Below are positions 2,125-12,350 of a stretch of DNA of 35,614 nt, one piece after another (the stretch's first letter is position 1; every line of letters begins with the position of its first letter). The notes beneath the pieces are model-generated. The model made no database searches and was not told the origin of the DNA. It was given only the letters and a program-made list of their open reading frames with translations. This DNA is from a virus. Lineage: Duplodnaviria; Caudoviricetes. The position numbers were made by a program, and so were the translations under genes. The stretch covers positions 1 to 35,614 of the IMG/VR virus record IMGVR_UViG_3300020044_003831; one strand, given 5' to 3'.

Positions 2125-4320
2125 TCAAGCAAATAAGCCATGTTGTTCTTTTTGCGCATCCTCAATGTTTTTGCACGCAAGATCAAAATAGGATGGCTTT
2201 AGCTCTGTACCAATAAACCTGCGGCGCATTTTCAATGCAACATAACCTTCGCTGCCAATTCCAGTGAATGGGCTAAACACCAGGTCTCCAGGATTTGTCC
2301 ATAGATGAATGCATCGTTCGATTACATCAAGCTGCAAAGGGCAAGCGTGCTTGAGATCATTTTCATCTCTAGCAGGCATCTTATTCAGCGTCTTTCCTTG
2401 CTCAATGTCATCCCAGATTGGGCTGGCGTACTTTTGCCACAGGTGGACGGGCAAGTCTTCGCCGTGCGTGACGCGCTCCTCAATCTCGCCGGGCTTGCGC
2501 ATAGTCACGACGTAATCAGGCAGACCCATGCGGCTCATGGTGCTGTTTTCGCGGATGGTCTTGTGCAGCAGACCAAGCGCCTTTGTGCGCTGCATGGCGA
2601 CGACTGGGTCTTTCCAAATGCAGACCTCAGAATGATAGATGAACCCGGCATCCTGAAATGCGCGGATCAAATCGCCACGAAAATCACGCAGGCCAATGAA
2701 GCCCTGGCGCATCTTTGTCGTAGGTAGGTTCATGCAATGAAATGAGACATTGCGGCCAGGCTTCAAGACCCGGAAAAGCTCGGAGATCAGGAACTTCAAC
2801 TGCTCGACAAACTCATGATCGTTTTTGCAGTTGCCCATGTCGTGGTCGCTGTTTGAGTAAACAAAAAGATCAGCAAATGGTGGCGAGAAAACAGAATAGT
2901 CCACGCTGTTGTCTTTCATGCGGCGAGACCACTTCACACAGTCACCCAAATGGACGGTAAAGCCATCGCCGTTGAATGTGTCTTCGCGATATTCATCGAC
3001 GATGTTCTCTTGTCCTGCGAGTTCTTTGTTCATAATGTCTTTCATGTGTTCGATCATGTTTGCACTCATCTCGTGATGTTGCACTTCTTTGCGTTTGAGG
3101 TTTGCCAGAATTTGGCCTTCGTTTTCTGCGGTGAACATATGCACCTGCACATTGCGCTTTTGGCCGAATCGGTAGCATCGGCGGACGGCCTGATAGAACT
3201 TCTCAAATGAGTCATCCAGGCCGACAAATGCCATGCGTGCGCAGTGCTGCCAATTCATGCCGAACCCACAAATTTTTGGCTTAGAAATCAGGACGCGCAA
3301 TTCACCGCTGCTGAACTTCATCATTTGTTCGGCTTTGTATTCAGCCTTGTCGCTGCCTTGCACGTTGACAGATCCTTCAATCAATTCGGCCAGCAACTCG
3401 GCCTCGTCATTCAAGTGACACCAGATAAGCCATGGCTCGGATGTGTCTGCATTGACAACATCGGCAAGCGCCCTGCATCGTGCTTCAATGCTATCGCGCT
3501 GGGCCTTTCTGCGCTCGGTCATGGTCATGGCTGGGCGCGAGAACAAATCGCCTTCAATGGCCTCGGTTTGAATGACATGCTCGACGTATTCTGGCGCGGG
3601 CAAAATGTACTTACTGCCATCAAAGCCCAAGTCGGACGGATTGCGCAGCACCACAGCCCAAGATCCCATCCACTCCCAGAACTTGGATGCGCCCCATCCT
3701 TTGAGTCGCCAAGTGCCGGTGTCGCCGGTGTCGTTGACAAAATAAGTCGCCAGCATCTCGGTGCGTGTCATGACGCCCAAGAACTCGCACTGATTTCCAA
3801 GCTCCTCGAAGTCGTTGGGCGATGGCGTAGCCGTGCAACTCAAACGATAAGGCACACCCTGGGCCGATGTAATGATGTGTTGACGGGTCTTGCCGTCGTG
3901 GGCCTTCAGGATTGATGACTCATCCAGCACAAGGCCATGCAACTCGGCGAAGTCAATCGCATCCATGCGCTCGTAATTGGTGATCCAAACACCAGGCGAA
4001 TCAATCACGCCAGAATGAGGAACGCGCTTGACCTCAATGCCAAACGTGGAGCCCTGCTCAATGGTCTGCTCAGACACGGCAAGCGGGGCCAGCACCAACA
4101 CAGATCCGCCAGTGTGGCTTGCCACTTCATCAGCCCATGAAAGCTGCATCAGCGTTTTGCCAAGGCCTGTATCGGCAAAGATGGCGGCACGGCCACGGCG
4201 AACAGCCCAGCTAACGATGGCGTGCTGAAAGTCGAACAAATGCTCGTTCAGGTCGCCAGGTTGATGGCCGGTTGCCACTTCTTTGCGGCGCTTGGCTGCT
4301 ACAAAATCTTCATATTCCAT
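2125..4320 (-). CDS. SNF2/SF2 helicase-like domain fused to an N4/N6 DNA methyltransferase
   Basis: Walker A DTGLGKT, LDESS, TATP and QAVRRCYRFGQ; C-terminal FSPPF (motif IV) precedes FSPFTGIGS (motif I), i.e. beta-class order. Confidence 0.9.
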   Translation of the reverse strand: MEYEDFVAAKRRKEVATGHQPGDLNEHLFDFQHAIVSWAVRRGRAAIFADTGLGKTLMQLSWADEVASHTGGSVLVLAPLAVSEQTIEQGSTFGIEVKRVPHSGVIDSPGVWITNYERMDAIDFAELHGLVLDESSILKAHDGKTRQHIITSAQGVPYRLSCTATPSPNDFEELGNQCEFLGVMTRTEMLATYFVNDTGDTGTWRLKGWGASKFWEWMGSWAVVLRNPSDLGFDGSKYILPAPEYVEHVIQTEAIEGDLFSRPAMTMTERRKAQRDSIEARCRALADVVNADTSEPWLIWCHLNDEAELLAELIEGSVNVQGSDKAEYKAEQMMKFSSGELRVLISKPKICGFGMNWQHCARMAFVGLDDSFEKFYQAVRRCYRFGQKRNVQVHMFTAENEGQILANLKRKEVQHHEMSANMIEHMKDIMNKELAGQENIVDEYREDTFNGDGFTVHLGDCVKWSRRMKDNSVDYSVFSPPFADLFVYSNSDHDMGNCKNDHEFVEQLKFLISELFRVLKPGRNVSFHCMNLPTTKMRQGFIGLRDFRGDLIRAFQDAGFIYHSEVCIWKDPVVAMQRTKALGLLHKTIRENSTMSRMGLPDYVVTMRKPGEIEERVTHGEDLPVHLWQKYASPIWDDIEQGKTLNKMPARDENDLKHACPLQLDVIERCIHLWTNPGDLVFSPFTGIGSEGYVALKMRRRFIGTELKPSYFDLACKNIEDAQKEQHGLFA

Positions 4321-5999: not shown

Positions 6000-6511
6000 A
6001 AGCCCGCCCATGGATTGTTTGTGTAGGACTTGTAGCTGCGGCCCGTTCTGATCTCGGTCACAACGCTGAAATTGATGCCAAGCTCGCGGGCAATGCTTTT
6101 GCTGGTGCCTTCCATGTTCCTGATTTTTTCAATCAACTCAGGAGAGTGAGGAGATCTTGCGCGTGCGGCCAATGCCAGTTTGTAATTTCTGGCCGGGTTT
6201 TGCTGATACTTTGTGCGTGCAGTAGTGAATTGCTGGAGCTGTTTGCGGGTCATCATTTGAATGTGTGCAGGCTCAACACAGTGCGGGTTTCCGCATTTGT
6301 TGCTGGCAAGAAGTCCATCAACTTTGAGTCCCAAATGATTGATTGCGATCCATCGACGAACCGGGATAAGTGCTCTTTTGTTTGGCACTCGCATATATGG
6401 CACATCGCTGCCTTTGCCACCATCCCAGATAAGGCAATCGCCGTCTTCGTGGCTTTTTGCTCTGATGAATTCCATTGTGATTGGCTCACCGGGTTTTCGT
6501 ATGACTTTCAT
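5996..6511 (-). CDS. Zn-loop HNH/homing-endonuclease-like protein with C-terminal HTH, possibly degenerate
   Basis: DCLIWDG, CGNPHCVEPAHI, IARELGINFSVV; the usual H before the first Cys and the downstream N appear substituted. Confidence 0.65.
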   Translation of the reverse strand: MKVIRKPGEPITMEFIRAKSHEDGDCLIWDGGKGSDVPYMRVPNKRALIPVRRWIAINHLGLKVDGLLASNKCGNPHCVEPAHIQMMTRKQLQQFTTARTKYQQNPARNYKLALAARARSPHSPELIEKIRNMEGTSKSIARELGINFSVVTEIRTGRSYKSYTNNPWAGL

Positions 6512-6556
6512 TGGTTTGTGTGTTGTGGTTAATGAGGATTTTATTATATCGTAATT

Positions 6557-6874
6557 TTATGGGATGGGCACATCATCCGGCCACAATCCTAACTTCGTCA
6601 GTTTTTCTATGGTCTTGATGTGTGCGGGCTGCCACATGGCCTGGCGCTCAGCTTTTGTCATAGATGCGCCTTGATCGAGCGATGCGTGGCATTGGAAGCA
6701 AAGCGATGCGATCAGGTTGTCATCCGCCTTGATGCCCCGGCCCTTGCCGCCGCCGTGATTTGTATGCGCGGCCACAACCGTGCCATCGTCAGCGCCACAA
6801 TGCTGACAGGGTATCTCGCGGGCGTTGCGCAGAAGCGTTTTGCTTCTGACGTAGTCGTGCTTTGGGAATCTCAT
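6557..6874 (-). CDS. YbcO/DUF1364-like putative nuclease
   Basis: CQHC..TVVAAH..GKGRGIKADD..LCFQCH..D pattern. Confidence 0.75.
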   Translation of the reverse strand: MRFPKHDYVRSKTLLRNAREIPCQHCGADDGTVVAAHTNHGGGKGRGIKADDNLIASLCFQCHASLDQGASMTKAERQAMWQPAHIKTIEKLTKLGLWPDDVPIP

Positions 6875-7395
6875 GCCATGCTCAAGATCTGGTCGACAAC
6901 GGCGTCCAGTTGCTCGCGGTTTTCGTACGTGGTCAACACTCGCGCAAGCAGGACGTTTATCACGGCGGAATAGAGTTTTTCAAACTCGGGTTCTTCCATG
7001 CGGCCAAAGCTGATCGACTTAGCTTTGAGCGTCATCGTGCCATCAAGGGTGAAGGCTTGCTCGTAGAAGCCCGCAAGGATGGTCACATCGGATCTGAACT
7101 GGTCAAAGTCCTTGGCGATGTCCATGCCTTTGAATTTGGTTGCAGGCGTCCAGGCTTCAAAGCCTAGGTTAATCAAGGCAAAGAACTTGCGATGAAACTT
7201 TAGGTTGCGCGGGAAAGTGGCCTCAATCGTGACGATCTGGCCTGGCTCGGATTGAAACATCCGCGCCCAGAGTTTTTTCCATGCGCTTGCGTCTTCGTCG
7301 GTGCGGCCAGCGAAGCATTTGAAAAGAAGGGCGCGAGCGCCCTCCAGTTCTGCGGGGATGGCCTGACCGGTGCGTTGGATGGTGAATTTAGCCAT
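6871..7395 (-). CDS. DUF1367-family protein (Nin-region-like)
   Basis: RN.KFHRKFFAL...FDQFR..V.I.AG.Y...KSISF..MEE.EF..LY motif. Confidence 0.75.
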   Translation of the reverse strand: MAKFTIQRTGQAIPAELEGARALLFKCFAGRTDEDASAWKKLWARMFQSEPGQIVTIEATFPRNLKFHRKFFALINLGFEAWTPATKFKGMDIAKDFDQFRSDVTILAGFYEQAFTLDGTMTLKAKSISFGRMEEPEFEKLYSAVINVLLARVLTTYENREQLDAVVDQILSMA

Positions 7396-7738
7396 TCAAT
7401 TTGGTTTTCAGTTCGTAGCCCATCAAAGGCCAGATTTTTTGGACGGCGTTCTGGCGGGCCACCTTGCGTCCAATTTCCGCATCGAAGTTCTCGGGGCTGG
7501 CACAGGCCGACTCGCCCGTAACGGTGAAGCCGTTTTGCAGGACAAGGACGCAAAAGGTCAGCAGATCAAGTTCTTTCGGCGTGGCCTGCCATTCAGGACC
7601 GCGTGTTTCGCCGACAAGCGCCTGTGATGCCGTGAAGTAGTGTTCGCTGGTGATGTTCGCCTCGATGTCATCAGGCGTGATGCGCGGGGCGGTTTTGCCC
7701 TTGGCGATGATTTCTTGCTCAATGGTTTGGTCGTTCAT
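7388..7738 (-). CDS. N4 Gp49/Sf6 gp66-family protein; candidate Acb4-like cyclic-nucleotide sponge
   Basis: APRITP..IEA.I...LTFCVLVLQNGFTVTGESACASPENFDAEIGRKVA..NAV.KIWPLMGY signature; AAGGAG RBS. Confidence 0.85.
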   Translation of the reverse strand: MNDQTIEQEIIAKGKTAPRITPDDIEANITSEHYFTASQALVGETRGPEWQATPKELDLLTFCVLVLQNGFTVTGESACASPENFDAEIGRKVARQNAVQKIWPLMGYELKTKLNG

Positions 7739-7764
7739 GCTTTTCTCCTTGGTTAAAAAATGGT

Positions 7765-7833
7765 GGGCCTACTCGCTGCGTCTGTGTTGCATCCCCCAAG
7801 AACCCTCAGAGGCACAGCATCCGCTTTCAGCCC
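7765..7833 (-). ncRNA. Structured RNA with a sarcin-ricin/loop-E motif between ssb and the Gp49/66 gene
   Basis: GGGCU-GAAAGC..GC-GAGUA-GGCCC (GAA/AGUA loop E); inner CUGUG/CACAG stem; followed by a U6 tract. Confidence 0.55.
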
Positions 7834-7840
7834 GTAATCG

Positions 7841-8263
7841 TCAAAATGGGATGTCGTCGTCCATGTCATCAAAGCCACTTGATGCGGGTGCAGGCGCTGG
7901 CCGTGCAGCTGGTCGCTCTTGTCGTGCAGGCGCTTGGCCTTGCTCGCGTTGTCCTGCGATCAATTCAATCTCCAGCACGGTCGCGGCTAGTTTGTGGCCT
8001 TGGCCGTTTTTGCCTTCGTAGGTCTGGATGTGCGGATCGCTCAGGACGGCGTAAATCTGCGAGCCTTTGAGCAGGTAGGGCGCGAGCGATTCGGCGCGCT
8101 TGCCCCAAATGGATGCGTCGATCCATTGCGATGGGCGCTTGTTGTCGTCGCCTTTTTTGCCGTAGTTGAACGCCAGCGACAGTTGAGCGACAACATCGCC
8201 TCGCGGTGTGTGACGGACTTCAGCGTCCCGACCAATGCGAAAAACTCCAGTGATTTGAGCCAT
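7841..8263 (-). CDS. ssb: Single-stranded DNA-binding protein
   Basis: OB-fold motifs IGRDAEVR and WGKRAESLAPYL.KG; acidic tail DDMDDDIPF. Confidence 0.95.
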   Translation of the reverse strand: MAQITGVFRIGRDAEVRHTPRGDVVAQLSLAFNYGKKGDDNKRPSQWIDASIWGKRAESLAPYLLKGSQIYAVLSDPHIQTYEGKNGQGHKLAATVLEIELIAGQREQGQAPARQERPAARPAPAPASSGFDDMDDDIPF

Positions 8264-11388: not shown

Positions 11389-11904
11389 ATGCAAATTTTC
11401 CAAAATTCGGAAAAATCACTGACATTACAAAAACTTTACGAAATGTTTTTTTATTGCCAAGAAACTGGGCTATTTATTAGAAAAATTGGCGTAAAAGGTT
11501 CTTCTGCCGGTGCTGTTTCTGGATCGCAAATGTCAAAAGGATATTTGCAAATTGGCGTAAACAAAAGAAAATATCTTGCTCATAGACTTGCTTGGTTTTA
11601 TGTTTATAAAGTTTGGCCGGATGGCCAGATAGATCACATTAATGGAATAAAAACTGACAATCGAATTGAAAATCTTCGATGCGTTACAAACAAGCAAAAC
11701 CACGAAAACTCAGGGATAAAATCATCAAATAGCAGCGGATTTCGTGGTGTGTCTTTCTACAAAAGAGATGGCACATGGACTGCTCAATTAACTCACAATT
11801 ACAAAAATATATATCTTGGAAGATTTGCGACAAAAGAGCAGGCAGCCCAAGCCGCACAAGAAGGTCGCGCAAAATTTTTTACACATTCATCAAGGCAAAA
11901 ATGA
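11389..11904 (+). CDS. HNH homing endonuclease with AP2 DNA-binding domain
   Basis: AHRLAW, IDHINGIKTDNRIENLR, SGFRGVSF..W.A and YLGRF; AT-rich. Confidence 0.92.
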   Translation: MQIFQNSEKSLTLQKLYEMFFYCQETGLFIRKIGVKGSSAGAVSGSQMSKGYLQIGVNKRKYLAHRLAWFYVYKVWPDGQIDHINGIKTDNRIENLRCVTNKQNHENSGIKSSNSSGFRGVSFYKRDGTWTAQLTHNYKNIYLGRFATKEQAAQAAQEGRAKFFTHSSRQK

Positions 11905-12350
11905 AAACTAATTTTCAAAGAACAAAAAAATGGCTAGAGACTTGCGGAAAAAAACAAAGTCAAGAAAACTTATCTACACAGATAGGCGTTCATATTGAGG
12001 AATTTTGCGAGCTTCTTGAATGTTTGCGAACTGATAGCGAAGGATATGCAAAACTTTTAGATAGAACAAGACTTGATTTGACTTGGTTTGCCTCAAAGCT
12101 CAAGCGCGGCGAGCAATCGGTTTACATCCCTGTCCATCTGCGCGTGGATGCCCTGGATGCGCTTTGTGATGGCGAGGTTACAGGCAACGGCGTGGCGTAT
12201 CTGGCGGGATTTGACAAGGATGCCGCCGATCAAGCCGTGCTGGACTCCAACGATTCAAAGCTCGAGGATGGCGTGGCCGTGATTCTTGAGGGTGGCAAAA
12301 TCGGCAAAGGTAAAGATTTCAAGCCGCCGAACCTGCGTGGCTTTGTTTAG
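11901..12350 (+). CDS. MazG-like/all-alpha NTP pyrophosphohydrolase
   Basis: IEEFCEL, DALDALCD, V.DSNDSK and GKIGKG..F..PNL; ATGA coupling to the HNH gene. Confidence 0.82.
   Translation: MKTNFQRTKKWLETCGKKQSQENLSTQIGVHIEEFCELLECLRTDSEGYAKLLDRTRLDLTWFASKLKRGEQSVYIPVHLRVDALDALCDGEVTGNGVAYLAGFDKDAADQAVLDSNDSKLEDGVAVILEGGKIGKGKDFKPPNLRGFV

Follow-up and report, generated by a model that had tools for sequence, protein, structure and literature searches.

A loop-E structured RNA and a predicted Acb4-family sponge gene behind phage ssb appear to be separately travelling modules

Where a structured RNA lies directly 5′ of a gene for a putative immune-signal sponge, the question is whether the RNA belongs to that gene at all and, if not, what it might be doing there. 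The locus that raises this question lies in a freshwater-type phage, in a window of 35,614 bases, which is the whole virus record. On the minus strand near the RNA the order is an HTH regulator, ssb (PF00436 by Pfam match, 7841..8263), the RNA (7761..7833), a PF13876 gene (N4 Gp49/Sf6 gp66, 116 aa, 7388..7738), a DUF1367/NinB-like gene (6871..7395) that overlaps the stop of the PF13876 gene, HNH-like genes and RusA, with ERF, Gp157 and RdgC on the opposite, plus strand. A preliminary description had taken the PF13876 gene for an Acb4-type sponge candidate and the RNA for its leader, which might be an attenuator, a processing site or a sensor tying the sponge to an immune signal. The phage host is probably one of the Burkholderiales, since most of the 15 RNA copies in bacterial genome records that passed our structural filter come from entries so titled (Comamonas, Polaromonas, Limnohabitans, Cupriavidus, Paraburkholderia). 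Elsewhere, the window encodes a MazG-like nucleotide pyrophosphohydrolase (11775-12350, plus strand), of a family often found 3′ of the RNA in other phages too, and an N6/N4 DNA methylase fused to an SNF2-type helicase (2125-4320, minus strand).

The protein side of the proposal is borne out. The 116-aa ORF matches PF13876 with an E value of 9e-36 (122.7 bits against a cut-off of 27), and the Shine-Dalgarno sequence AAGGAG sits 6 nt 5′ of its ATG, in agreement with the stand-alone Gp49/Sf6 gp66-family gene with a strong ribosome-binding site that had been described. The preliminary description had placed Acb4 in this Pfam family, and Chang et al. (10.1101/2024.12.30.630793) do equate the two. 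The sole PDB sequence match of the protein is the Acb4 of SPO1 (9e4w, E 0.0018), and when its AlphaFold model (pLDDT 88.6) was compared with solved structures, a check that the preliminary description had proposed, 9e4w filled all of Foldseek ranks 1 to 10 (E 2e-4 to 5e-4, probability 1.0, TM 0.51-0.53 by query), with the entry after these at E 0.049. Modelled in four copies as a homotetramer, the protein scored 0.88 against 0.02 for the best control; among structures already solved, 20 of 30 pairs attain this mark, as does 1 of 23 single chains. Contacts agree by at least 86% between runs and pLDDT is at least 86, though the score may stem from likeness to the solved Acb4 tetramer.

Beyond family, predicted fold and tetramer, the protein has in common with SPO1 Acb4 the pocket residues F48, F62 and I66 (F71, F85 and I89 here), and differs from it in a longer N-terminus, an insertion at about residues 38-57 and an overall identity of about 25%. 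The positions of SPO1 K36, E49, Y57, T70 and K81 are occupied by L, T, A, V and P, so that both basic contacts and the guanine-reading Glu are changed; this mapping was made via sequence alignment, with an inferred one-residue numbering offset and an extrapolated position for K36. With only 3 of 10 pocket residues identical, the ligand preference of the window sponge would not be fixed by the SPO1 comparison. A0A1Q9XIK3 (Pseudomonas sp. PA15, Table S3) is identical to the window protein at 47 of 50 residues over 59-108 and agrees with it at 9 of 10 pocket positions, both counted by eye. By label and N-terminal sequence it corresponds to an entry in Fig. S4 of Chang et al., and we take it to be the PA15 homolog, one of eight tested; all eight bound 3′3′-cGAMP, and those from Gram-negative-host phages also bound 3′3′-cAA, according to that paper (10.1101/2024.12.30.630793). 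Ab09 gp59, which has several of the window protein's pocket changes, is reported to bind 3′3′-cGAMP weakly, and 2′3′-cAA too. Since Pfam family, PDB sequence and fold matches, predicted tetramer and near identity in the pocket region to a tested homolog all point the same way, the 116-aa protein very probably has cyclic-dinucleotide sponge activity, and the gene is an ordinary new member of the known Acb4 family. The sponge would bind 3′3′-cGAMP and probably 3′3′-cAA, as its homologs from Gram-negative-host phages do, and would thereby blunt CBASS. It might also trip the Panoptes and PanDA guards, which Acb4 proteins are reported to set off.

The RNA itself is also much as it had been drawn. 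The 102 nt that separate the ssb stop (7841) from the ATG fold into a terminal stem P1 (GGGCU/GGCCC, 7829-7833 with 7765-7769), a loop-E module with GAAA opposite GAGUA (7825-7828 and 7770-7774), a 2-bp GC stem, a GGAUG/ACGCA loop and a stem P3 (CUGUG/CACAG, 7813-7817 with 7782-7786), beyond which lies the variable apex (7787..7812), a G-U-rich hairpin with the 3′ bulge AUGCAA. Upstream, a 7-nt spacer from the ssb stop to P1 (7834..7840), a putative RNase P-type 5′ leader, ends in A(-2) C(-1); downstream, an ACCA tail (7761-7764) is followed by the translation-initiation region of the next gene (7739..7760), which consists of U6 (7755-7760), AACC and the AAGGAG (7745-7750). All of these features are on the minus strand. 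Folding energy is within the range of chance (z 0.30 for 110 nt; z -1.44 for 70 nt, with 14 of 200 shuffles equally good), and the case for the fold is made by comparison of copies. In 117 viral copies found with P1 left free in the pattern, the four P1 pairs beside the loop are paired in 99, 97, 96 and 91%, against shuffled means of 49-73%; P3 pairs 1-3 are paired in 92, 95 and 85% of a metagenome set; and a 71-row alignment, the copies of which are related, has 82 cells with changes on both sides against 26.6 in shuffled data. These pairing statistics come from unfiltered sets, because the structural filter requires at least 3 P1 pairs; the patterns fixed most core letters and the copies are related, so that the counts overstate independence. 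The 2-bp stem, free in the pattern, is still GC/GC in 112 of 116 copies. For the loop-E letters the pattern-found sets are circular, but the lineage copies found through ssb were not chosen by them, and these keep GAA opposite AGUA in 11-12 of 12. The G-U closing pairs speak for an RNA rather than a DNA element.

As to the size of the family, a strict pattern gave 17 viral stretches. Relaxed patterns gave estimates of ~1300 stretches in viral and ~670 in metagenome data, and 120 were retrieved from either source. A loose pattern gave many chance matches; the structural filter left 240 non-redundant copies from 315 raw matches. A covariance model finds a single copy in the window (7760-7838, minus strand, 68.7 bits) and has matches in just 2 of 151 genomes of one host family, which argues against a chromosomal host RNA. 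No Rfam match was obtained in the window (at gathering), at the locus, in 14 homolog loci or in 7 variant loci. Nor did we find a paper describing the motif, and papers that contain its exact letters deal, to judge by their titles, with unrelated subjects; six supplementary files of Fremin 2023 (PMC10690425) were negative, while its other three and the supplement of Weinberg 2017 (PMC5737381) lay outside the search and could hold it. Taken with the covarying stems, the comparisons support a real loop-E structured RNA family.

Does this RNA then belong to the sponge gene? It does lie 5′ of that gene, as had been claimed, but it lies as much 3′ of ssb, and its assignment to the sponge alone does not survive a comparison of loci. 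Among the 80 best acb4 loci the RNA is present at 3, all with an ssb 90-96% identical to that of the window; it is therefore not an acb4 leader. The genes that follow it were surveyed, as the preliminary description had advised: the 240 copies precede 210 ORFs in 112 clusters, and genes of the MazG-like, HTH, nuclease and primase kinds are among them. A simple heuristic was used to call the neighbouring ORFs, not all of them correctly. The RNA is thus found before unrelated genes, an outcome that the preliminary description itself had named as telling against its proposal. Sponge homologs occur near 10 of 236 RNA-selected loci, nine upstream of the RNA and one downstream, and some counter-defence purpose may be common to both. 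At 67 distant ssb loci, 27 have sponge homologs and none has the RNA; among 80 loci of a second ssb family there are 23 strong RNA copies and no sponge match. No terminator-like site is present on the minus strand within 6000-7760, and pairing of the RNA is no better with its own ribosome-binding site (-7.07 kcal/mol) than with a foreign one (-7.19 kcal/mol; p 0.80 in 98 loci), so that an intrinsic terminator and sequestration of the ribosome-binding site were both rejected and there is no sign of an expression platform behind the RNA. With RNA at so few acb4 loci, so many downstream clusters and no such platform, the attenuator or sensor linking sponge to immune signal finds no support.

What the lineage of the window has instead is an exchangeable slot, with the layout ssb-RNA-slot-ninB, anchored upstream by ssb and bounded downstream by the NinB-like gene. 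Of 13 loci whose ssb is at least 83% identical, 12 have the RNA. Of these, six have Acb4 first in the slot (one of them with a RyR-domain gene after Acb4), one has Acb2/Tad1 and then Acb4, one a RyR-domain gene and one a 60-aa protein, while in three the slot is empty. A U-tract with a Shine-Dalgarno sequence follows the RNA wherever the slot is filled (nine loci) and at none of the three empty slots, is also found 5′ of acb4 in two loci without the RNA (L110 and L142), and as U6 is seen in just 10 of 240 RNA copies. Hence the U6 tract, which had been counted with the structured leader, is part of the slot gene's ribosome-binding region and not of the RNA family, whereas the fold ascribed to that leader stands. 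RNA and Acb4-family gene are thus best described, from these distributions, as apparently two separately travelling modules behind ssb. Tripping of Panoptes and PanDA, if it occurs, would explain the rapid turnover of the slot. The RyR-domain protein (L492:750-1088, plus strand, stand-alone, PF02026 E 8e-11; a near-identical gene lies behind the RNA in L462) is likely, by its domain, a RyR Tad-type sponge, a RyR-like domain having recently been reported as a gcADPR sponge. The 60-aa protein (L001:1291-1470, minus strand, on the same contig as L463) has no Pfam match, matches unnamed clusters only in the ESM Atlas and has the shared ribosome-binding region; because the slot otherwise holds Acb4, Acb2/Tad1 or a RyR-domain protein, it is a candidate new anti-defence factor. 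In three other loci (L213, L244, L292), the ORFs directly before the RNA encode Acb4 or Tad2-like domains with a common Cys-containing C-terminal tail.

The position and ends of the RNA are more telling than its downstream neighbours. In 144 of 229 copies the core is preceded, at a distance of 8-14 nt, by a same-strand stop codon, which is the case at 2.3% of random places. The upstream genes belong to unrelated families; an acidic tail of the SSB type ends 62 of the 192 proteins, and upstream representatives include SSB profile matches. Start codons of the following genes are commonest 16-22 nt beyond P1. The first P1 nucleotide is G in 74%, the leader is A/U-rich with C(-1) in 58% and A(-2) in 50%, and RCC follows P1 directly in 135 of 240 copies (176 with a shift allowed) against a background of 3.5%; ACCA, as in the window, occurs in 30. 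Behind the stop of the second ssb family, a G-start helix with RCC is found in 44 of 79 loci against 7.7% background, and of these, 12 have the window-type RNA, 14 a shorter or altered loop-E form and 18 no loop E. All five loci with a tRNA have it 6-118 nt from the RNA on the same strand, and several copies without an upstream ORF lie just behind -10-like hexamers or beside tRNAs. Throughout, the RNA is in sense orientation, between co-oriented genes or just after promoter-like sites, and it is present in tandem at two loci (L342, L387). RCC anchoring is described in two papers (PMC12710915, PMC11143913), which also give hairpin, 4.5S and phage RNAs as RNase P substrates, C4 RNA and polycistronic mRNAs appearing there in reference titles.

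Since a G start, an A/U-rich leader and an RCC tail are the marks of RNase P substrates, the reading that we favour, though we hold it to be evenly balanced, is a processed element of the stable-RNA type in a highly expressed operon. Of the options first offered, a processing site would then be the best, and it would not be specific to the sponge. RNase P would cut at the 5′ G, and trimming would proceed to the ACC tail. With the ssb ribosome terminating 5-7 nt before it and the ribosome of the next gene initiating 16-22 nt behind it, the RNA would be squeezed in and stay folded while both genes are translated. Cleavage would free an abundant RNA of 60-130 nt, leave the downstream message with a hairpin-protected 5′ end, or both; the near-invariant loop-E core would probably bind a Burkholderiales host factor, and the apex would be interchangeable cargo or filler. 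Some of the data sit awkwardly with processing: a cut 5-7 nt behind the ssb stop would expose the ssb mRNA, which fits badly with the ssb-like upstream bias, RNase P recognition does not explain the conserved core, and 105 of 240 copies have no RCC immediately behind P1 (64 even with the shift allowed), with ACCA in so few.

The apex varies on its own account. There are nine types among 13 lineage copies, and three pairs in the lineage have the same apex before different slot contents. Of 69 same-apex pairs, 46 have neither neighbour in common; in 23 pairs both neighbours are at least 70% alike, and the apex is the same in only 3 of these. Antisense matches of the apex show no excess in its own flanks, where the longest match averages 7.58 nt against 7.49 nt over 138 loci. 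The same holds for a host rRNA operon and for 1.9 Mb of pooled loci, with 65 matches where 67.8 would be expected. One apex (L442) has a 14-nt identity with a host-group rRNA operon, which is marginal at ~0.1 expected over all apexes. Other classes of RNA with a G-rich helix and an ACC tail, different interiors and, in some, no loop E were also seen (L542-L619, directly behind ssb stops; L478, L523, L538), and the seven tested have no Rfam match. Small Cys-rich proteins with a signal-peptide-like start (L345:1273-1479, minus strand, and 22 relatives) are encoded immediately 5′ of the RNA in 23 of 192 cases and have no Pfam or PHROG match, and a short element with H-type pseudoknot potential recurs just behind the RNA in four loci (L342, L356, L405, L431).

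How else might these facts be read? The stop codon so close before the core, the ssb-like upstream genes and the upstream placement of nine of the ten nearby sponge homologs would also suit an uncut RNA that, bound by protein, serves as a 3′ barrier and stabilises the upstream message of bulk genes (SSB, sponges) once the U-rich tail further downstream has been cut, and RCC would suit the trimmed 3′ end. For that purpose, however, a plain GC hairpin would suffice, the 67 distant ssb loci do without the RNA, and the copies behind -10-like hexamers or beside tRNAs have no upstream ORF whose message could be protected; we regard a barrier as rather unlikely. HK022 put and Bacillus EAR are cis-acting antitermination RNAs, and an RNA of that kind, loading on RNA polymerase, would account for the constant sense orientation among co-oriented genes or after promoter-like sites, for the single copy in the window and, given a conserved host partner, for the near-invariant core. 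It would not lead one to expect tandem copies, tRNA adjacency, a conserved RCC end or unrelated interiors with the same ends, and no terminator-like site lies downstream on the minus strand within 6000-7760, all of which makes antitermination improbable. The exchangeability of the apex on a conserved scaffold (46 of 69, and 3 of 23, above), together with the status of C4 as an RNase P substrate (by a reference title), brings to mind a C4/CI-like scaffold with the apex as antisense guide; the lack of antisense excess in all three places searched and of any Rfam C4/CI model match renders this quite improbable.

Nor do we give much credit to a small self-cleaving ribozyme of a new kind. A core with about 20 near-invariant letters, flanked by variable stems, and a 2-bp stem that is GC/GC though left free in the pattern, are what such a ribozyme might show, yet the fold is rod-like with no covarying pseudoknot seen, Rfam has no match, and the wider set of elements has its ends, not its core, in common: the idea is most improbable. 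Control of the sponge gene by a riboswitch or attenuator responsive to cyclic nucleotides retains the attraction that the RNA is directly 5′ of acb4 here and precedes sponge-family genes in 8 of 12 lineage loci, that the conserved internal-loop core could form a pocket and that conditional expression would pay if, as is reported, Acb4 triggers Panoptes and PanDA. Against the scarcity of the RNA at acb4 loci, the 112 downstream clusters, the behaviour of the U6 tract and the absence of any preference for its own ribosome-binding site, we find it scarcely credible. Three further candidates were rejected: stop-codon readthrough or a conserved peptide (the core falls in all three frames, 52, 44 and 44, with TAA the commonest stop), rRNA mimicry (no close core match in the host rRNA operon) and a Y RNA (GNCGAAN0-1G in just 76 of 240 copies).

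Among known systems, the processed RNA that we favour most resembles the non-tRNA substrates of RNase P, such as 4.5S RNA and the C4 RNA of phages P1/P7, in its G-start terminal helix, unpaired A/U-rich leader and RCC; the CI RNA of P4 is likewise an RNase P-processed non-tRNA substrate. It differs from them in having a loop-E core, no Rfam match to SRP or C4 and no antisense target found. The SRP RNA of one host-group genome ends in a stem and ACC, which was not so in another case checked. With the bulged-G (sarcin-ricin/loop E) module it has GAA opposite AGUA between two stems in common, a likeness at the level of sequence, but it is closed by a terminal stem and has no GNRA cap. Some copies read GNCGAANG at the 5′ strand, as bacterial Y RNAs do (YrlA; PMC4201824), whereas the window copy reads GCUGAAAG; moreover, the C covaries as an ordinary pair, the phage RNA has no tRNA-like domain, and no Ro60/TROVE gene is found among 177 representative immediate neighbours. 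As for the slot, an anti-signalling hotspot beside ssb, with Acb4-Sequestin, Tad2 and RyR Tad, is described for N4-like phages in a recent report (10.64898/2026.06.04.730250). In both settings sponge genes replace one another beside ssb, Acb4 and a RyR-domain protein among them, but here the lineage is one of small phages (~36 kb), and the slot, which holds 0-2 genes and has a common ribosome-binding region, is flanked by a structured RNA and ninB.

The RNA family described here is large and strongly covarying and had no match in Rfam or in the literature searched. One could go further and suppose that an RNase P-releasable clamp behind ssb, made of the G-rich helix and the RCC tail, is a cassette for interchangeable small-RNA cargo, an RNA counterpart of the sponge slot, and that the released loop-E RNA would serve counter-defence by decoying some immune factor of the host that binds or cuts RNA; we consider this a long shot. 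If the RNA is released as a small RNA, it would be a non-coding RNA common among phages and would have a partner in the host. New here are the lineage comparison that separates RNA, U-tract and sponge, and a sponge slot with an unannotated occupant. The slot is a clean site for guilt by association: three sponge-type families replace one another in it, and the 60-aa occupant is thus a direct anti-defence candidate.
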